From the sequence record MF158038: DNA of 46,454 nt; one strand, given 5' to 3'. Below the pieces are notes generated by a model. The model ran no database searches and was not told the DNA's origin. It worked only from the letters and a program-made list of their open reading frames with translations. This DNA comes from Shigella phage Sf11 SMD-2017. Both the position numbers and the translations under genes were made by a program. Below are positions 1-46,454 of the stretch, one piece after another (the first letter of the stretch is position 1; every line of letters begins with the position of its first letter).

Positions 1-335
1 TTTTTTTGCTCGGGAAGCGAACACCTAAATTACTGATTTTGCTTAATATTGGCTTCCCGAGAATTTTTCTCATTTACCTATATACTATTGAAAGATAAAG
101 GAAAAATTAATCTCTGAAATATTAATACGCTTTTTCGGGAAGCGTGTCAACTCAGGAGGTAAAGTATGTAGGTTGCTATTAAGTGTTTCTTCGTGTGCTT
201 GCTGAATTATAGAAAAGTTGATATATTAAATTGAGTTTACTGTTGATTGATTGTCTGGAGGTTGTCATGTACAGGTTTGGTAGCGCAATGGCTGAGGTGT
301 ATGAGTTTGTTAGCGGGATGTCGATTGGAGAGGTG
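1..335. repeat. Left copy of 335-bp exact direct terminal repeat (identical to 46120..46454)
   Basis: Bases 1..335 match the last 335 bases of the window exactly; AT-rich non-coding context with CGGGAAGCG-type repeats. Confidence 0.9.
199..227 (+). promoter_or_regulatory. Candidate sigma70 promoter for rightward early operon (TTGCTG-N17-TATATT)
   Basis: -35-like ttgctg at 199-204 and -10 tatatt at 222-227 with 17-bp spacer, upstream of the first plus-strand gene. Confidence 0.4.
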
Positions 336-482
336 CGATTTTTTGTGGTAGATGATTTCCGTGCCAATAACAGTATTGAAAAATTCAGGGCGAGCCTGTG
401 CTGTGTTGCGAAAGATAATTCGTGGCTTTTTGTAACCAGAAAGATGGAAGAAGGCGAAGTGTCTGTTCGGAGAATTAAATGA
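231..482 (+). CDS. Hypothetical early protein (likely start at ATG 258 after a GGAGG RBS)
   Basis: ORF track; ctggaggttgtcATG at 258; first gene of the plus-strand early block. Confidence 0.5.
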   Translation: MSLLLIDCLEVVMYRFGSAMAEVYEFVSGMSIGEVRFFVVDDFRANNSIEKFRASLCCVAKDNSWLFVTRKMEEGEVSVRRIK

Positions 483-2812
483 TGATTGGTTATGAAGATT
501 ACCGCAAATGTGGCTTCCCTATTATTGGAATCCATGCAATGGATATCGACCGCAATTGCACATGCGGTGATCCAGAATGCAATGCTGCCGGTAAGCATCC
601 GGTTATGAGTAACTGGCAGCTTGGAGTTATATGGGCTGATGACCAGATTGAAAATATGGCTGAATATGGTCAATTGCAGTCATTCGGTGTCCTTGTGAAT
701 GGTTATCTGGTAGTTGATATTGATCCACGCAACGGAGGTAATGATGGATATGAATCACTTTGTGATGCCTTAGACGTAGAGCTTGCTGACGAAGCTGGCT
801 TTACTGTTAAGACTGGTGGTGGTGGTCGCCACATCTATTACAAACTTCCTGAAGGAATAAAGCTGCGCTCTCATGACAGAAGGTTTAAGGGTATTGACTT
901 TAAATCATCTGGTTTTGTTGTTGGCTGCGGCTCATTCCATAAGTCAGGTAACTTTTATGAAGCTGAGCATGGCTCCCCTTCAGAGATAACTGAATGTCCA
1001 TCTGAACTTATTGAGCTTTTGTCGCGCCCTGAGAGAACGGAAGACGAAGTTTTCACGCTTGATAGTAAAAATTACAGCATTGCCGAAATGGAGGATATGC
1101 TCAAATACATCAAAGATGGTGATGAGTATGACCCATGGCTTCATGTAGGTATGGCTATCCACGAAGCTACAGAAGGCAATGGTTTTGAGCTTTGGGATAG
1201 ATGGTCATCGCAGTTCAGCAAATACAGAGCTGAAGAGATGGACGCAAAATGGCATTCCTTTGGAAAGGACGGTGTTAGCGAAAAGATAACAGAAGCAACG
1301 CTGGTTTATCTCGCGCAAGAGGGAGGGTGGGTAAGGCAAGTAACTTTTGAGGCTACGCCAGAGGAAATTGAGAAACTTGAGTCTTTCGAACGAGAGATGG
1401 CAATGGGTGTTGGTGAATGCCCTGTAGAGTACAAAAGTGTTGATGTCCGTTATCCCCCTGGATTTGTTGGTCGCCTTACGGCGTGGATTAATAAGAACTG
1501 TGCAGAGAAGCGAGAGAACATTGCAGCACTTGCCGCATTGCATGCCGCATCCATGATTTGCGGAGCGTCATCTGATATTTATCTTACAAACAGGAAAGCC
1601 TTACCAAACCTGTTTGCTGTTGGCATAGCTGGTTCAGGTTCAGGTAAGGGTGATGTCCTTGCTGCGCTACAAAAGATAATTGATTGCTCAGGATTGAGTA
1701 AGACAGTTGCCGGTAAGATACGTTCAGAGCGTGCGATATATGAAGGTCTTTGCGCTAACCAGATGTTTAATATCATCATGGATGAGATTGGGATAAAACT
1801 TGGTAGTGTTGTTGGTCAGAAAGTAAGCGAGTACAACATGGCAACCGCTGGTGCAATCATGGAGGCTTACACGTCAGAAGTTCTTTATTGTGACCAGCGG
1901 GTTACTGAGGATTTCATTAAGTCTTTCGAAAAGAGAAAGGCTATGCTGTTGATGGCTATTGAGGAAAATGAGATACAGGCAGACCCAGTTGACATTAAGT
2001 GTCAGTTTGATGATGTGATAAACAGAATTGATGGAGCTATAAGGAATCCATTTTTTTCAATCTTTGGTGTGTCTACTGATGATCAGTTTAAGCGACTTAT
2101 CACTGAAGAAAACATTAAGTCAGGTCTTATGGGTCGCGCAATGATTATGCAGGAGTTGCAGGAGATTGCTGACGAAAACGAAAACGTTAACTACTGTGAT
2201 CTACCTATGGATATGCAACTGACCATAAAAACAATAATAAATGGCGGAACGGCTGGGCACAAAAACTGGACAGACTCAATAATCAGTCAAAAAGAAAGAC
2301 GGATTATAAAAGCTACGCCTGAAGTTTCTCAGCTCGCTAAGGAGTTCTTCTCATGGATTAAAACCGTTGCAAGAAAGCATGTAGAAAATGGTACTGGTTA
2401 TCACCCATTGATAAACAGATGCGCCGTGAAGGTGGCAAAGATTGCTGGCATTCTCGCGTGCGATACTGGCGTCATAACCATGGAGCACTTGAGGTATGCG
2501 GTAGCATTAACAATTAAATCAACAAGCGATCTGATGATGCGTGCTGACAGTATCGCCGGAGCGAAGTCTAAAGCTATGGAAGAAAGAATTGAAGGTATTT
2601 TCTCCATGGTTAAAGAATATGTGAAGCGTGGAATGACCAAAACAGCAATGGTTAGAGGGGTAGCAAAAGAAGGTGGGTATAAACGTGCTGATGTCGAGAG
2701 GTGCGTAGAGAAGTTGTTATCAGATGGTATTATTTGCATTGATGAAAATGCAAAAAGAACATCTCACAACGTAATAATTTACAAATTAACAAATGATGAG
2801 GTTGAGATATGA
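479..2812 (+). CDS. DNA primase-polymerase (AEP prim-pol N-terminal domain, PriCT-like middle, P-loop NTPase/helicase-like C-terminal domain)
   Basis: 777-aa ORF; prim-pol-like motifs (LVVDIDPRNGG, GGGRHIYY, GIDFKSSGFVV), W..W..KW.SF primase C-terminal motif, Walker A GIAGSGSGKGD. Confidence 0.8.
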   Translation: MMIGYEDYRKCGFPIIGIHAMDIDRNCTCGDPECNAAGKHPVMSNWQLGVIWADDQIENMAEYGQLQSFGVLVNGYLVVDIDPRNGGNDGYESLCDALDVELADEAGFTVKTGGGGRHIYYKLPEGIKLRSHDRRFKGIDFKSSGFVVGCGSFHKSGNFYEAEHGSPSEITECPSELIELLSRPERTEDEVFTLDSKNYSIAEMEDMLKYIKDGDEYDPWLHVGMAIHEATEGNGFELWDRWSSQFSKYRAEEMDAKWHSFGKDGVSEKITEATLVYLAQEGGWVRQVTFEATPEEIEKLESFEREMAMGVGECPVEYKSVDVRYPPGFVGRLTAWINKNCAEKRENIAALAALHAASMICGASSDIYLTNRKALPNLFAVGIAGSGSGKGDVLAALQKIIDCSGLSKTVAGKIRSERAIYEGLCANQMFNIIMDEIGIKLGSVVGQKVSEYNMATAGAIMEAYTSEVLYCDQRVTEDFIKSFEKRKAMLLMAIEENEIQADPVDIKCQFDDVINRIDGAIRNPFFSIFGVSTDDQFKRLITEENIKSGLMGRAMIMQELQEIADENENVNYCDLPMDMQLTIKTIINGGTAGHKNWTDSIISQKERRIIKATPEVSQLAKEFFSWIKTVARKHVENGTGYHPLINRCAVKVAKIAGILACDTGVITMEHLRYAVALTIKSTSDLMMRADSIAGAKSKAMEERIEGIFSMVKEYVKRGMTKTAMVRGVAKEGGYKRADVERCVEKLLSDGIICIDENAKRTSHNVIIYKLTNDEVEI

Positions 2813-3231
2813 TTAATTACAAGTATCTGGTGATGAGAGGTTTGTATGACTATTTTGAGTCAGAAAATCCTGAGCGCGCACACGATAACGCAATATCCAT
2901 GATGACAGGAAAGCACCTGATGGAAGTTTACTACTGGAAAATGCCTGTATTCCGCTGCAATATGGGTATCTGCATTGATGATGACGTACTGTTTTGTCGA
3001 ATACAATATGAAAACAATGTTGGCATAGTGACAGCGTCGTACAGGGATGTTGCAAGGAAATCCGGAAACTGGCATCCAAGCGAAGTATTTGCTGGTGACG
3101 CACTATTTAATTTCTGCAAGGCGTTTGGTGTTTTGTATGAGGATGTAAGCAAAGAGTATAGCGGAAGGCGTGAGAAAGATAGCTTGAGTTCCAAGGGTGT
3201 GATTAACTACAAGGATAAAAACCATGTGTAA
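2809..3231 (+). CDS. Hypothetical protein
   Basis: ORF track; start overlaps primase stop (ATGA), consistent with operon coupling. Confidence 0.5.
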   Translation: MINYKYLVMRGLYDYFESENPERAHDNAISMMTGKHLMEVYYWKMPVFRCNMGICIDDDVLFCRIQYENNVGIVTASYRDVARKSGNWHPSEVFAGDALFNFCKAFGVLYEDVSKEYSGRREKDSLSSKGVINYKDKNHV

Positions 3232-3427
3232 CACAATGAGAACAATATCAGGCGAACTTTGTCGCTCAGAAGGTTCATGGCATTTCATGCCGAATGGTTA
3301 TTCGCCATGGTTTTTCTGGAGCGGGATTAACAAAGCATGGATTCTATCTAATTACCACGTGATTGATGATTACTGGCACAGATTTTGTGTTGGTTATGTT
3401 GATATTTCAAAATTGATGATTAAGTGA
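3224..3427 (+). CDS. Hypothetical protein
   Basis: ORF track; tight packing within the early operon. Confidence 0.4.
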   Translation: MCNTMRTISGELCRSEGSWHFMPNGYSPWFFWSGINKAWILSNYHVIDDYWHRFCVGYVDISKLMIK

Positions 3428-3437
3428 GGATAAGAAA

Positions 3438-3695
3438 ATGAATGTGAAAGATAAAGTTTTATACGTGATGAGAAAGAGAAAATCCATTGAGGAGGAGACA
3501 CTTGGGATTTGTCGCAAGTTCTCCGTGGCTACGTGGAATCTCCGTCTATCGATGGTGAATGAATTTCCTGATGATGAATGGACAACAGCAAAGTTACGGA
3601 AGGTTCTGATTTCTCTTTGTAAGGATGGCATTGTATCAAAGGATTTAAATAACAGTCGCATTGGTAATTCAGTTTGGATTCTGGAGGAAAACTGA
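3438..3695 (+). CDS. Hypothetical protein
   Basis: ORF track; RBS-like aggataagaaaATG. Confidence 0.45.
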   Translation: MNVKDKVLYVMRKRKSIEEETLGICRKFSVATWNLRLSMVNEFPDDEWTTAKLRKVLISLCKDGIVSKDLNNSRIGNSVWILEEN

Positions 3696-3976
3696 TGGCT
3701 AACTTGCAACTTGCCGTCAAAGGCGAATACTTCGATGCCATGATTCGTGGAGAGAAAACGGAAGAGTATCGCCTGTGCAATGACTACTGGAATAAACGAA
3801 TTATGTTCCGGGAATATGACCGCCTGATTATCACAAAGGGATATCCGAAGCGCGACGATTCCAGTCGAAGAATTGATGTTCTGTATGGCGGATATGAAAT
3901 CAAGACAATCACACACCCCCACTTCGGCGATAAACCGGTAAAGGTATACGCAATAAAAGTTAACATCAAAGCATAA
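3674..3976 (+). CDS. ASCH-domain protein (likely start ATG 3695)
   Basis: Contains ASCH-like GxKxxExR motif (RGEKTEEYR) near the N-terminus; about 93 aa from the ATG at 3695. Confidence 0.6.
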   Translation: MDSGGKLMANLQLAVKGEYFDAMIRGEKTEEYRLCNDYWNKRIMFREYDRLIITKGYPKRDDSSRRIDVLYGGYEIKTITHPHFGDKPVKVYAIKVNIKA

Positions 3977-3978
3977 CA

Positions 3979-4001
3979 AAAAGCCCGCAAACGCGGGCTT
4001 T
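3979..4001. terminator. Bidirectional intrinsic terminator (agcccgcaaacgcgggct + T-run)
   Basis: GC hairpin flanked by A-run and T-run between convergent genes. Confidence 0.7.
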
Positions 4002-4002
4002 A

Positions 4003-4287
4003 TTATTTAACAATCCATTTTGTAACAGCTGGCCTTAAATCTTCCTTTCTGAAGAGTCCACCAGTAAGTTTTTCGGCATCAATTGCTGCTGTAGCGCTAA
4101 TTCTTCCCCTTGACACCCACTGATTGACAGCCTGTTTTGACACACCAAGAAACCTTGCTAGTTGTGATTGCCCTCCAACATAATCAATCAGCTCTGATAG
4201 CTTCGTCTGTTCCATTTCTCTTATCTGTTCTGCGATGCTTTTCATGTGTTTACCTCTGCTATCTGTATGCAGCAATAATGAACTCAA
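4003..4287 (-). CDS. HTH (Cro/CI-type) DNA-binding regulator; probable start at 4245
   Basis: Small protein with helix-turn-helix-like segment (QSQLARFLGVSKQAVNQWVSRGR); only minus-strand gene in the early block; own promoter 4275-4303. Confidence 0.7.
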   Translation of the reverse strand: MSSLLLHTDSRGKHMKSIAEQIREMEQTKLSELIDYVGGQSQLARFLGVSKQAVNQWVSRGRISATAAIDAEKLTGGLFRKEDLRPAVTKWIVK

Positions 4288-4303
4288 AAAAAATTTTCGT
4301 CAA
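4275..4303 (-). promoter_or_regulatory. Candidate promoter for the Cro-like gene (TTGACG-N17-CATTAT), divergent from the plus-strand TTGACG at 4325
   Basis: cgtcaa at 4298-4303 and ataatg at 4275-4280 on plus strand give a minus-strand -35/-10 pair with 17-bp spacer; inverted TTGACG copies 22 bp apart. Confidence 0.45.
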
Positions 4304-23399: not shown

Positions 23400-23735
23400 A
23401 TGTTAGAGGTGATGAAGATGAAAGATGAATTCAAAGGCACAAAGGGTCCGTGGGCATTCAAGAAAGAAAAAGGCGAGCAAGAGTGGTTTGTGTTTCAGGC
23501 TGGAACGTTAAAGAAAAGATATGGCGGGACTATCCGAACTCCAGTGGCGGAAGAAATTAATGATAAACATGACGCCCAACTTATCGCCTCAGCACCAGAG
23601 TTACTTGAGTCTCTTTGTCAGCTTCGCGATTATGTTGAGGATGTTTGCGCAGTATCGTCGGATGATTGTCATGAAGATCATCCATTAAATCTGGCGAACA
23701 AAACAATTAAGAAAGCATTAGGAAAGAAACAATGA
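23400..23735 (+). CDS. Hypothetical protein
   Basis: ORF track; first gene after the island promoter. Confidence 0.5.
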   Translation: MLEVMKMKDEFKGTKGPWAFKKEKGEQEWFVFQAGTLKKRYGGTIRTPVAEEINDKHDAQLIASAPELLESLCQLRDYVEDVCAVSSDDCHEDHPLNLANKTIKKALGKKQ

Positions 23736-24541
23736 AAACACTAAGCAAAATCTATTCAGACAAAGAAACGCGCAACGGAATCGCTGTCAATAAAACCTAT
23801 CTCGTGCCAGTGGAGCGAATCTATCTGGAGCCGGGATATAACATCCGTGAAGCAGACGAGCAACACGTTGAATATTTCGCGCAGTGCTGGGAATCAGGTC
23901 AGCCACTGCCAGCATTAACAGTTATTCCTGACGAGAAGGGAATCCGCATTCTTGATGGTCAGCATCGCTATCTCGGCGCATTGCGTGCCATTGAGCGTGG
24001 CGCACCAATAGTTCGCATTGAGTGCAAAGATTTCACTGGCGACGAGGCTGATAAAATTGCCTTCATGGTGTCATCAAGTCAGGGTAAGCAACTTGACCCA
24101 TTTGAGCGCGCAAAGGCTTACACGCGACTGAAAGGTTTTGGCTGGACGAATGAAGAAATCGCCAAGAAGGTAGGTCGTTCAGTATCTGACGTGCAGATGC
24201 ATCTGTCACTGGGTGATGTGCCTGCGGAAGTAAAAGCGCGAATCAGTGCCGGGCAAATCAGCTATGCAAATGCCGTAGCAGTAACGCGTGAGCATGGCGA
24301 TGATGCTGTTAAAGTTATCGACGAGGCGGTAGAGGAAGCAAAAGCACAAGGCAAAGATAAGGTTACAGCAAAGGTGCTGAAATCGAAAAAGATTAAGCCG
24401 GTAGACCGTCTGATTGAACTGTTGAAGCCAGCAGACCATGTGATTCTACCTGCTGGTCATGTGGTGACAGAGGATGAGGAGTTTATCCAGATTCCTGTTG
24501 CTGATATTCACGAGGTTATGGCAATTCTGGAGAAGATGTGA
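23732..24541 (+). CDS. ParB-like nuclease-domain (ParB/Srx fold) protein
   Basis: ILDGQHRYLGA motif (the DGxHR signature of ParB N-terminal domains); 269 aa. Confidence 0.65.
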   Translation: MKTLSKIYSDKETRNGIAVNKTYLVPVERIYLEPGYNIREADEQHVEYFAQCWESGQPLPALTVIPDEKGIRILDGQHRYLGALRAIERGAPIVRIECKDFTGDEADKIAFMVSSSQGKQLDPFERAKAYTRLKGFGWTNEEIAKKVGRSVSDVQMHLSLGDVPAEVKARISAGQISYANAVAVTREHGDDAVKVIDEAVEEAKAQGKDKVTAKVLKSKKIKPVDRLIELLKPADHVILPAGHVVTEDEEFIQIPVADIHEVMAILEKM

Positions 24542-41400: not shown

Positions 41401-42825
41401 TTATCGCCTGCGACGGATTAGCATTCCGCTACCGCGCTGAACGATATGGTCTCCAAGGCCATATCGTAAACTATCAATCGCGTGATTGTATTTATCAACT
41501 ATGTCGGGGAGTATGTTCCCTGTTAATTTATCCACCTTGTAGCTGTACATTGTCATTTCTTCAATAACGTGCTTGCATCTTGAGTGTACGTAAATCCTGT
41601 CACACCCACGAAGCCATGTAATACCATCTTCAATACTCCCCGGCCATTTTGCGCACGGATGAATATCGAATCCAGATCGGCGTATATGGCTTATTGTCTC
41701 AGGGCGAGCGCAATCCCCATACCATCTGTACTTTTCTGAATTTGGGAAGGCCGAGCGCATCGCCTCCGGTGTGTCAGTTATCTCGAGACCAACCTTTGCA
41801 AAGTCGCGGTAGATATACAGGTTTCTTCTTCCGCCGCCCAAATCCTCGACATAAGATTCAGTTGCTGCCGTAGCATCCTGTGAGAAACCAAAGTCAATAC
41901 CATAGTAAGGCCCGCCCCAATCTGGCGACGGCTCAAAATCAAGAGTCTGCCATTTACCCCCAAGCACAGCTTCATCTGAACGCCGGTTAAATAACCCCTC
42001 ATAAACCCACAGATAGCGATCATAATCAACCGCCTTCATCTGGTTCATATGCTGTTTAAGTTCCTCGGTAAACCAGGGGTTATGGATGTAGTTAACGTTC
42101 ACAACGACAATATCATCATCCTGATATATCCCATCAACCATCTTATCCACATACGGCTCAACAAAGTTTGTCCACGTGGGATCGGTTTCCCGATTGGGGT
42201 TAAAAACAATAATAATTTCAGAGCCAGAGGCGCGAACTGTAGGAATGAGTGTATCCCATGACACCTGACTAATGTTCTCCGACTCCTCGCAGAACACATC
42301 GGTAAGTCCAGCCATCCCTTTAATGGCCGTGATGTTGCGCCACATGCCCCGGAATACGAACTTTGACCGCGTGCCGTGGTGGGTTATCTCGCCATCGACG
42401 CACCGGTATTCCTGAGCGTGTCCCTTCCTGTTAATTTCATCGACCAGCTCGGCGTAGCTGGACTCCTTGATTGAGTTCTGAATTTCCCGGAAGCAGCCAA
42501 CCCTGCAATTTCTGAATCTTGCCTTTTCGATAAGATAGGAAACGACGTTAGCCGTTTTGCCGCTGCCCCTTCCGCCATAGAAGACCTTAAACCGGCGCGG
42601 ATAAAGCAAAAGCTCCATGCGTTCAGGGATTAATATTGTTGGCTCTTCAGTTGTCTCTGATACGCCATCTTGAGTCATTTTAAGTCGCTTGATAACATTT
42701 GGCGTGCCATCATCAAGCAGCTTATCGACAATGCCGAAAACAGCAGAGTCTGGCTTCTCCATGGAGTTACCAACCGCTTCTTCCAGCTTTTCGATTGCCA
42801 CACTTGAGAGTCTTTTTCTAGCCAT
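41401..42825 (-). CDS. terL: Terminase large subunit
   Basis: Walker A YGGRGSGKT; C-terminal nuclease motifs (GIDFG, DKYNHAIDSLRY); 474 aa. Confidence 0.9.
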   Translation of the reverse strand: MARKRLSSVAIEKLEEAVGNSMEKPDSAVFGIVDKLLDDGTPNVIKRLKMTQDGVSETTEEPTILIPERMELLLYPRRFKVFYGGRGSGKTANVVSYLIEKARFRNCRVGCFREIQNSIKESSYAELVDEINRKGHAQEYRCVDGEITHHGTRSKFVFRGMWRNITAIKGMAGLTDVFCEESENISQVSWDTLIPTVRASGSEIIIVFNPNRETDPTWTNFVEPYVDKMVDGIYQDDDIVVVNVNYIHNPWFTEELKQHMNQMKAVDYDRYLWVYEGLFNRRSDEAVLGGKWQTLDFEPSPDWGGPYYGIDFGFSQDATAATESYVEDLGGGRRNLYIYRDFAKVGLEITDTPEAMRSAFPNSEKYRWYGDCARPETISHIRRSGFDIHPCAKWPGSIEDGITWLRGCDRIYVHSRCKHVIEEMTMYSYKVDKLTGNILPDIVDKYNHAIDSLRYGLGDHIVQRGSGMLIRRRR

Positions 42826-43348
42826 GATTAAAAAACTCCCCGTGATGTTTCTCTCTTTCTTCCATTATCTTTTTGACTGCATCTTCAATGTTGGCGAACC
42901 TGCCAAGATTAACCATCCTGCCATTTATATTTAATCTTGCCATCCACTTGCATCTTGATTTATCCCAATACACACCCTTAACCCCTGACGTGTTGTTTGC
43001 CTGTAGCTTTTTGTTGTAACCATTTTGTTGATGGTCAGCCTCTCGCAGATTAACAAAACGATTATCAAGCGTATTGTTGTTTATGTGGTCTATTTCTTTT
43101 TCAGGCCAACTACCAGTCATATAAAGCCAAGCCAGCCTATGCGATCTATACCACTTTCTTCCAAAATGAATATAGTGATACGGTCGCTTGCTACCAACGG
43201 TGCCGCATAATTTTATTGTTCCTGCTGGCTTCCCGGGCTTAGCCCTTCCCTGCTTGTGTGGGTTTTTCCATGTAAAAATTCCGGTGTCAGGATTGTAATC
43301 AAGGATGTGTTTTAATTCTGCTTGCGTAAGCATATATAGATTCCTCAT
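42818..43348 (-). CDS. HNH homing endonuclease with AP2-like domain, between terS and terL
   Basis: HRLAWLY...EIDHINNNTLDNRFVNLR...DHQQN HNH motif; GVKGVYWDKSRCKWMARL AP2-like motif. Confidence 0.75.
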   Translation of the reverse strand: MRNLYMLTQAELKHILDYNPDTGIFTWKNPHKQGRAKPGKPAGTIKLCGTVGSKRPYHYIHFGRKWYRSHRLAWLYMTGSWPEKEIDHINNNTLDNRFVNLREADHQQNGYNKKLQANNTSGVKGVYWDKSRCKWMARLNINGRMVNLGRFANIEDAVKKIMEEREKHHGEFFNHG

Positions 43349-43432: not shown

Positions 43433-43876
43433 TTACTGTTGTTGCTCCAGTAACTTCTCCAGTCGCTCAAGGCGCGCGGCGAGTTCGGTTAACTCTTTCA
43501 CGTCAAGCCCAACCTTAATCATAGATACAACCTGAGACGCCACGTCAATTGGAAGTTCTCCACTGGAAACTGATTGAATGACGTCCTCTATCTGCTCTAC
43601 TGGCGTGGCATCTTTGCGGTATTTAAAATTAACCGGAGGCGCCATGCTTTTTTGTACGGGGCTGATGCGCAGGAATATTTCCTTCAGCATTTGCACGCCT
43701 TGAGTCGGGTTTTCCTCAGTCATCTTGATTGACGTCCTGATGAATGCGTCAAGGAATTCCTCCTCGCCAAGCCCGCAGCGCTTTAATGCTTCAATGAGCC
43801 TGTTTCTGTAGCTTAATCCTCTGCCAGCAGGCTGGTATTCAGAGGAAAATTTCATTACTGGGTTTGGATTAGCCAT
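43433..43876 (-). CDS. terS: Terminase small subunit (positional)
   Basis: 147 aa upstream of terL (separated by the HNH gene), C-terminal coiled coil. Confidence 0.55.
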   Translation of the reverse strand: MANPNPVMKFSSEYQPAGRGLSYRNRLIEALKRCGLGEEEFLDAFIRTSIKMTEENPTQGVQMLKEIFLRISPVQKSMAPPVNFKYRKDATPVEQIEDVIQSVSSGELPIDVASQVVSMIKVGLDVKELTELAARLERLEKLLEQQQ

Positions 43877-45405: not shown

Positions 45406-45752
45406 TTGTTACGCCTCGTATGAATTAATGATTGCCTTAATGCGCCGACGATACCACTGCATGATGTGCTCGTTATGCCAGTTGCTCATTTTGCTACTCC
45501 TTATACCCTGATTTAGAAACTGCCACTGCGATAATGATGAATGCCACGATAACCAGACTGGCGATAAGTTCGAATGCTGCGCCAGTCATTTGTTGATTCC
45601 ATAAGCTGAGATTAAAGCCTGCATTGCTGCGTTCCAGAATGCCTCAGCATGAATGCTGTTGTTCTGGCGATTAACTGCAATGCGCGCCATAGCCTGTGCA
45701 TCTTCAAATTCTTCACGGTCTTTGATTTTCATTTCTTCACCCTCAGTTGTTT

Positions 45753-45781
45753 CGATGAGTTCAATCTACATCAATGGTTAT
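45753..45781 (-). promoter_or_regulatory. Leftward early promoter TTGACG-N17-TAGATT
   Basis: cgtcaa 45776-45781 and aatcta 45753-45758 on plus strand; same motif family as the island promoters. Confidence 0.55.
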
Positions 45782-46119
45782 TCTACGTCAACACACAGAG
45801 AAAGAAAAAGCACGGCTAAATGTTAGTGAACGTTAGCTTACATATATAGTTACATACATTACTAATAGTAGCCTTTGTTTATTACATCTATAAAGTATAT
45901 TAAGATCTTCTTTATATTTATTATATATATTAATACCTTACGCTACATAAACACGAAAACCAGCAATTAAGCTGGTTGATTTGTTAATGAATTTCGTTGA
46001 TTTTGAATACCGAGTTATCTGGAAGCGAAATTCCTTTTGTTTTCAGTATCTTCCGTTCGCTTCCCGGCTTCCCGAAAATACCCCCCCCTTTTTTTATGAT
46101 GAGCTTTTTGTTTATCCAT

Positions 46120-46454
46120 TTTTTTTGCTCGGGAAGCGAACACCTAAATTACTGATTTTGCTTAATATTGGCTTCCCGAGAATTTTTCTCATTTACCTAT
46201 ATACTATTGAAAGATAAAGGAAAAATTAATCTCTGAAATATTAATACGCTTTTTCGGGAAGCGTGTCAACTCAGGAGGTAAAGTATGTAGGTTGCTATTA
46301 AGTGTTTCTTCGTGTGCTTGCTGAATTATAGAAAAGTTGATATATTAAATTGAGTTTACTGTTGATTGATTGTCTGGAGGTTGTCATGTACAGGTTTGGT
46401 AGCGCAATGGCTGAGGTGTATGAGTTTGTTAGCGGGATGTCGATTGGAGAGGTG
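46120..46454. repeat. Right copy of 335-bp exact direct terminal repeat
   Basis: Identical to 1..335. Confidence 0.9.

Follow-up and report, generated by a model that had tools for sequence, protein, structure and literature searches.

The window, by which we mean the whole 46,454-nucleotide sequence recorded for Shigella phage Sf11 SMD-2017 (MF158038), begins and ends with the same bases. Positions 1–335 are identical to 46120–46454, and 335 nt is the longest exact prefix of the whole window that is also its suffix, confirming the redundancy described in a first-pass annotation of this sequence. The unit (non-redundant) genome is 46119 bp. Over long stretches the window shares 88–91% identity with Escherichia phage Sa179lw (Buchananvirus), ECO95 1-6-1, Skate-group Salmonella phages, and others, relatives that are lytic siphophages of 46–48 kb. 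A prophage or plasmid module was considered and rejected: the region has no match in E. coli genomes, and the only match of the primase to plasmids is weak (27%, on a Shewanella plasmid). Far from the contig ends, this lytic phage also encodes a 269-aa protein with ParB/KorB helix-turn-helix domains (23732–24541, + strand).

The two ends of the contig meet inside a 650-bp divergent intergenic region that runs from 45733 through the junction (46119|1) to 266. On the leftward side, an operon of small genes continues on to an HNH endonuclease and the large terminase (Pfam Terminase_3/Terminase_3C; 41401–42825, − strand). The endonuclease, which has an AP2-like domain (42818–43348, − strand), lies between a putative small-terminase ORF (43433–43876) and the large terminase; its gene is present in YX3973 and L027 and missing in Sa179lw. 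The rightward operon opens with a small ORF of 71 aa (Sf11_gp1/phrog_28700; 267–482, + strand), followed by a 777-aa primase-helicase (479–2812, + strand), a 140-aa ORF (2809–3231, + strand) found after the primase in all relatives, and, more distally, a Cro-like gene. Three extra small ORFs (3224–3976, + strand), absent from Sa179lw, separate the 140-aa ORF from the Cro-like gene, and one of them, an 85-aa ORF (3438–3695, phrog_2814), reads like another small winged-helix protein.

Each operon has a likely promoter. The rightward one (46318–46346, equivalent to 199–227, + strand) would consist of a −35 element TTGCTG at 46318–46323, a 17-nt spacer, and a −10 element TATATT at 46341–46346; five relatives with a small-ORF homologue conserve these hexamers. 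The leftward one, for the small-gene operon toward the terminases (45763–45791, − strand; TTGACG, 17-nt spacer, TAGATT), comes from a consensus scan only. The AT-rich stretch at 45800–45990, which falls to 20% GC, is ~90% conserved among relatives whose repeats, described below, are completely different; it holds a 28-nt imperfect direct repeat (45882–45909 and 45912–45939), a GATC site, and a terminator-like hairpin that reads on both strands (45958–45977). The intergenic region has neither DnaA boxes (TTWTNCACA) nor IHF sites, and an Rfam scan of 45500–46454 at E≤1 returned nothing.

Between the hairpin and the rightward promoter lies a dense array of short repeats. A search that allowed one or two mismatches to TCGGGAAGCGAA identified six unique sites, in both orientations, within 248 bp of non-coding DNA, 214–461 nt upstream of the primase start at 479 in circular coordinates. 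This density is far above chance: the core 7-mer GGGAAGC/GCTTCCC occurs five times in 260 bp as against four times in the other 45.9 kb (Poisson P ~5e-11), and those four copies are scattered, at chance level. The first-pass annotation had proposed at least five copies per ~200 bp in both orientations. The clustering and the mixed orientation stand, but the exact 9-mer has only three unique copies (CGGGAAGCG at 46130 and 46255 on the + strand, duplicated at 11 and 136, and CGCTTCCCG at 46058 on the − strand), and a count of at least five requires that one mismatch be tolerated.

Read from left to right, the array begins with iteron 1 (TCTGGAAGCGAA; 46018–46029, + strand), which differs by one mismatch and was found by the mismatch-tolerant search. 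Iterons 2 (46056–46067) and 3 (46064–46075), both on the − strand and overlapping at an offset of 8 nt, read TTCGCTTCCCGG and CCGGCTTCCCGA on the + strand. Iteron 4 (46129–46140, equivalent to 10–21, + strand) is TCGGGAAGCGAA itself; iteron 5 (46168–46179, or 49–60, − strand) reads TTGGCTTCCCGA on the + strand; and iteron 6 (46254–46265, or 135–146, + strand) is TCGGGAAGCGTG. The last of these ends ~50 nt before the rightward promoter. Iterons 2 and 4 form the left and right arms of the innermost inverted pair, a perfect 12-nt match (46055–46066 and 46130–46141) with arms 63 nt apart; the pair gctcgggaagc/gcttcccgag singled out earlier is real as well. The resulting order is forward, reverse, reverse, spacer, forward, reverse, forward, with opposed inner repeats flanking a central spacer (46076–46128) that contains the previously noted C8T7 tract (46081–46095), a T8 tract (46119–46126), and the contig junction. 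This spacer is a candidate melting or priming zone, and ‘iteron-like’ is an apt label for the repeats around it. The minimum of the cumulative GC skew also falls at the array, a position confounded by the switch in gene orientation there.

Homopolymer tracts recur at the same place in related phages. Of 24 related loci, 14 have poly-C/G tracts of 6–11 nt within the array and seldom have them outside it; often there are two tracts, ~41 bp apart (L027:3520 and 3562; L030:2517 and 2558; L006:5183 and 5224; L013:5898 and 5939; L035:5819 and 5861). Tracts in the array centres may be priming or melting signals. We dropped, as a firm claim, the idea that paired C-runs and G-runs mark divergent priming, since their orientation varies by locus (C..G, G..C, C..C).

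The first-pass annotation offered two readings of the 335-nt redundancy, a physical direct terminal repeat or a circular-assembly overlap, and treated the iteron-like repeats as its boundary. Under the first reading, the 335 nt would be a true direct terminal repeat of virion DNA, and the repeats and homopolymers at its left edge a site of terminase recognition or cutting. The redundancy is exact, its length corresponds to no usual k-mer size or known k value, and its left boundary is non-coding, rich in repeats, and at the centre of an inverted-repeat structure; in addition, the related contigs 071939 and 054408 start, and 076658 ends, within their own repeat regions. Several observations weigh against this reading. 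On both sides the limits of the 335-nt repeat are the contig's own ends, and the sequence gives no independent boundary. The left copy (1–335) contains iterons 4–6, the rightward promoter, and the small ORF as far as its 69th nucleotide; position 335 falls within that ORF (ATG 267 to stop 482), so that the right-hand copy of the gene is truncated. Two IMG/VR contigs (3300045988_017815 and 3300045988_031864), whose primases are 99.6% identical to that of the window, align with it at ~95% identity across 45519–600 without a break at 46119|1. The right copy (46120–46454) accordingly reads as the true continuation of the circular map over the junction, and the idea of a real genome end bounded by the repeats is not supported.

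The ends of these close relatives, moreover, are not those of the window. Contig _031864 has an exact end overlap of its own, 119 nt long, at window position ~4286, which is ~1.5 kb past the primase and 4.3 kb from the window's junction, and the more distantly related contig _071939 has one of 89 nt. Each of the three sequences has an A/T 8-mer run as its start: TTTTTTTGCT for the window, and ATTTTTTTTGAG and ATTTTTTTTGGA for the two contigs (L025:1–10 and L038:1–10). The window contains exactly two such runs, at 46119–46126 (over the junction with 1–7) and at 4286–4293, and these are the start points of the window itself and of its 95%-identical sibling. That near-identical genomes start at different homopolymers points to an assembler or sequencing artefact rather than to a choice made by terminase. 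A rule of the form ‘smallest k-mer read backwards’ picks the observed run in all three contigs, with the IMG/VR pair judged on their visible parts only and the window's start shifted 2 nt relative to the other two. Starts at the longest A/T homopolymers, with overlaps of 335, 119, and 89 nt, suggest a homopolymer artefact or some ordering rule of the assembler. IMG/VR contains no match to the start sequence of the window itself.

The packaging enzyme points the same way. The closest solved relatives of the large terminase, from which we infer the mode of packaging, are Sf6 gp2 (E 4.5e-36) and the SPP1 G2P nuclease domain. Sf6 and SPP1 are headful packagers, and the terminase is in this respect not of the type that makes exact ends. 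In related groups, PhageTerm found no termini for KlebP_265, whose genome was read as terminally redundant and permuted and whose cluster is sister to the Buchananvirus/Skatevirus phages, together one putative family according to its authors (PMC11769527); nor did it find termini in the more distant Kagunavirus fBC-Eco01 (PMC9825357). Direct terminal repeats of the T7, T5, and N4 type are, like the redundancy here, exact repeats of a few hundred bases at both linear ends, but the ends of the window are not conserved among near-identical genomes, its terminase is of the wrong type, and its boundary cuts a gene. We therefore regard a physical terminal repeat as highly improbable. The evidence favours an assembly overlap on a linearised circular map, which removes a false genome-end call for Sf11, and a terminal-repeat flag on a contig of this phage group should be taken to mean a permuted genome with a circular map.

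What, then, are the repeats? The gene beside them suggests one answer. Pfam assigns to the 777-aa protein an AEP primase domain (Prim-Pol), PriCT_2, and DUF3987, an SF6/MCM-like helicase domain. In an AlphaFold model of aa 618–777 (pLDDT 89.7), the C-terminal end is a textbook winged helix, made up of helix 1 (aa 700–716), helix 2 (aa 721–732), a recognition helix (aa 736–749), and two strands (aa 752–754 and 767–770) that enclose a wing (aa 755–766). On the domain assignments and the model, a helicase and a sequence-reading DNA-binding domain would be combined in one initiator. The C-terminus alone, used as a protein query, gave just three hits. DUF3987 proteins have been described as SF6, MCM-related helicases whose last domain is a winged helix-turn-helix; an AEP primase is either part of the same polypeptide or encoded next to it (PMC4889955). 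For a PriCT-DUF3987 protein, 5′–3′ helicase activity is reported (PMC11724360).

Comparison with relatives shows that the homologous intergenic slot holds short repeats of a different sequence and the same layout, always in both orientations. The repeat is CTATTTGCC(A) in Sa179lw and L023, CTAAATGCC in YX3973, CTATTTCCCG in gmqsjt-1 and ECO111 5-P, TCTAAAGTC in the Klebsiella phages VLCpiS13c and 6991 and several metagenomic contigs, and CTCTGTAAA in L034. Even members of the family that are only 34–39% identical, Vibrio phage pYD21-A (CTTATGATCAC) and contig L044 (AGCTTATCC), have an array beside the primase module. Repeat classes 2, 3, and 4 have equivalent inner inverted pairs around spacers of 44–64 nt, and the polarity is common to classes 1–3. 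In L014, L016, L018, and L042 there are only degenerate GACTTT/CTAAAG sites, and Proteus phage RS51pmB (L037), the C-terminal 80 aa of whose primase are 43% identical to the window's, shows no clear array in the 5 kb that flank the primase on each side. In several relatives (L031–L036 and L042) the block of Cro, primase, and ORF, corresponding to window 267–4287, is inverted relative to the intergenic region and terminase operon; the array is then downstream rather than upstream of the primase and still adjoins the block.

We aligned 24 primases and sought columns that separate the repeat classes, a comparison that rests on three well-sampled classes and a few single examples. The class to which the window belongs (class 1, GGGAAGCG) has seven loci, five with primases at least 99.5% identical to the window's and two with primases only 71% identical. 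The sole residues common to all seven and found in none of the 17 others are H763 and N764, in the wing, whereas primases that are 93–94% identical overall and have wings N-A or N-K accompany other repeats. Residues that mark the CTAWWTGCC class are K740, E748, K754, and A764; for the CTATTTCCCG class they are L707, K726, D744, K764, and A765. Over the 13 loci of classes 1–3, 9/9 class-diagnostic columns fall in aa 700–777, as against none of the 299 variable columns elsewhere, although that domain contributes only 30 of 329 variable columns (Fisher p 1.3e-10, a value made optimistic by the kinship of the sequences). Repeat and DNA-binding domain thus change together between elements, with the same kinship inflating the significance. 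We propose the winged-helix domain (aa 700–777, encoded at 2576–2809, + strand; diagnostic residues E740, H763, and N764) as the putative reader of the iterons.

Simple linkage is a poor account of this pattern. The part of the gene that codes for the winged helix is the one most distant from the repeats, 2.3 kb away, yet it tracks them; the nearer N-terminal part does not. The association also held in a forward test: P0008, a primase 74% identical to the window's that was picked solely for its wing SHNV, was predicted to lie beside GGGAAGC repeats, and seven such cores, of mixed orientation, do precede the primase operon on its contig, together with a C7 run. A second test, P0006, yielded only degenerate CTAAAG/CTTTAG sites. 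The same winged helix tolerates some variation in the repeat, as L023 and L007 have identical C-termini and the repeats CTATTTGCCA and CTAAATGCCA, respectively. Outside the primase, the 140-aa ORF has three columns specific to class 1 only, with Y6, D26, and M31 restricted to GGGAAGCG loci; on this sequence pattern its product may have a helper role, as an accessory origin factor.

Other proteins could in principle read the array. The repeats might be operators at which a transcription regulator, such as the Cro-like repressor or the product of the small ORF, acts on divergent early promoters, with no role in replication. They do lie between the two likely promoters, most relatives examined carry a Cro/P22_Cro-type gene in the same module, and inverted copies are frequent among operators. 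Yet the Cro-like protein is 97.5–98.8% identical between phages with unrelated repeats, and neither it nor the small ORF (compared for classes 1 and 2), nor the first leftward gene, has columns that separate the classes. A gap of ~50 nt separates the closest repeat from the rightward −35 downstream of it, the distance to the leftward promoter exceeds 220 nt, the majority of sites lie clear of any promoter, and the array follows the primase module where that module is inverted. Operators for a separate regulator are accordingly an unlikely account of the array. Autoregulation by the primase-helicase itself, which would be compatible with an origin, is possible but not indicated.

The first-pass annotation had left terminase recognition and a replication origin side by side as candidate functions. 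Small terminases bind arrays of short repeats, and the array stands at the head of the leftward operon that ends in the terminase genes, so the repeats could be pac sites at which a headful packager's small terminase binds. The ORF annotated as small terminase in Sa179lw, 43433–43876 here, is however 2.1 kb and about ten small ORFs away from the array, and the class of repeat tracks residues of the primase winged helix. Among the proteins compared, variation in the repeats follows the primase and nothing in the packaging module, which counts against a terminase site at a physical terminus as well. We give very little weight to a pac function; the correspondence between repeat sequence and the winged helix at the C-terminus of the neighbouring primase-helicase favours an origin over terminase recognition.

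With the sum of this evidence, we read the window as the complete circular map of a lytic siphophage near Sa179lw, in the Buchananvirus/Skatevirus group, with a 335-nt overlap, and the CGGGAAGCG repeats as the iterons of its replication origin, with a probability of roughly 0.7. It is plausible, from the co-variation and by analogy with characterised systems, that this iteron-type origin owes its specificity to the winged helix of the primase-helicase next to it. The origin would comprise the homopolymer spacer of ~50 bp and the six 12-nt sites of mixed orientation that flank it, directly upstream of the primase-helicase operon. The C-terminal winged helix would read each iteron through its recognition helix and wing, hexamers of the enzyme would self-load at the inward-facing sites that flank the spacer, the spacer itself would melt, and the enzyme's own AEP Prim-Pol domain would lay the first primers, perhaps for forks that leave in both directions.

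The natural variants could be taken a step further, to a two-part recognition code for the winged helix, a speculative reading that as a whole we think rather doubtful. In it, residue 740 (E or K) would track the inner half-site (TTCCCG or TTTGCC) and residues 763–764 (HN or N-A/K) the outer half-site (TCGC or CTAT); related phages of the same host would keep private origins by swapping a few residues; and the paired C/G tracts ~41 bp apart would be the start sites for the first primers of the AEP domain. Whether or not such a code applies, the natural variation is a ready-made specificity-swap experiment. The window supplies a concrete candidate origin (46018–46265) and a proposed reader (aa 700–777) for a widespread family of phage AEP-primase/SF6-helicase fusions with at least 120 members, which might help in building or minimising the genomes of small coliphages and Salmonella phages.

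The primase-helicase shares its AEP-helicase domain logic with pRN1 ORF904, the PriCT-DUF3987 helicase AgaPH, and DUF3987 phage helicases. In the passages that we searched, neither the papers on these proteins (PMC4889955, PMC11724360) nor other literature on phage AEP-primase/SF6-helicase enzymes reports an origin that the phage enzymes recognise or a preference of theirs for particular iterons. The domain architecture was already known; the addition made by the window is the origin, together with its co-variation with the wing.

Two better-known systems resemble the candidate origin in how they work. The alpha protein of phage P4 combines primase, helicase, and a C-terminal origin-binding winged helix in one polypeptide, and its ori and crr contain type I iterons in both orientations. 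The P4 primase is Toprim/DnaG-like and its helicase belongs to SF3, whereas Pfam gives AEP Prim-Pol and DUF3987 for the protein of the window; no chain of the PDB library searched, which may lack P4 alpha, matches the latter by sequence at E≤1. On these grounds membership of the P4 alpha family was rejected. The window also has no second, crr-like cluster, and the shared length of 777 aa is a coincidence.

The origins of Staphylococcus aureus pathogenicity islands (SaPIs) offer the second parallel. At these origins, iterons that lie on either side of an AT-rich centre and point in opposite directions are bound by the winged helix of Rep, which is self-loading, or of PriRep5, a fusion of primase and Rep (PMC9371898). 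[quoted passage not shown] The differences are several. The helicase of the window is of the DUF3987/SF6-MCM-like clade rather than the SaPI Rep family, and its primase is a fused AEP Prim-Pol with PriCT_2, unlike that of the SaPI system; its iterons are ~10–12 nt long as against 5–6; its array lies upstream of the gene and has homopolymer C/G tracts at the centre; and its host element is a lytic coliphage and not a satellite. By analogy, the array and its neighbouring enzyme would work like SaPI Rep/ori and P4 alpha/ori while belonging to neither family.
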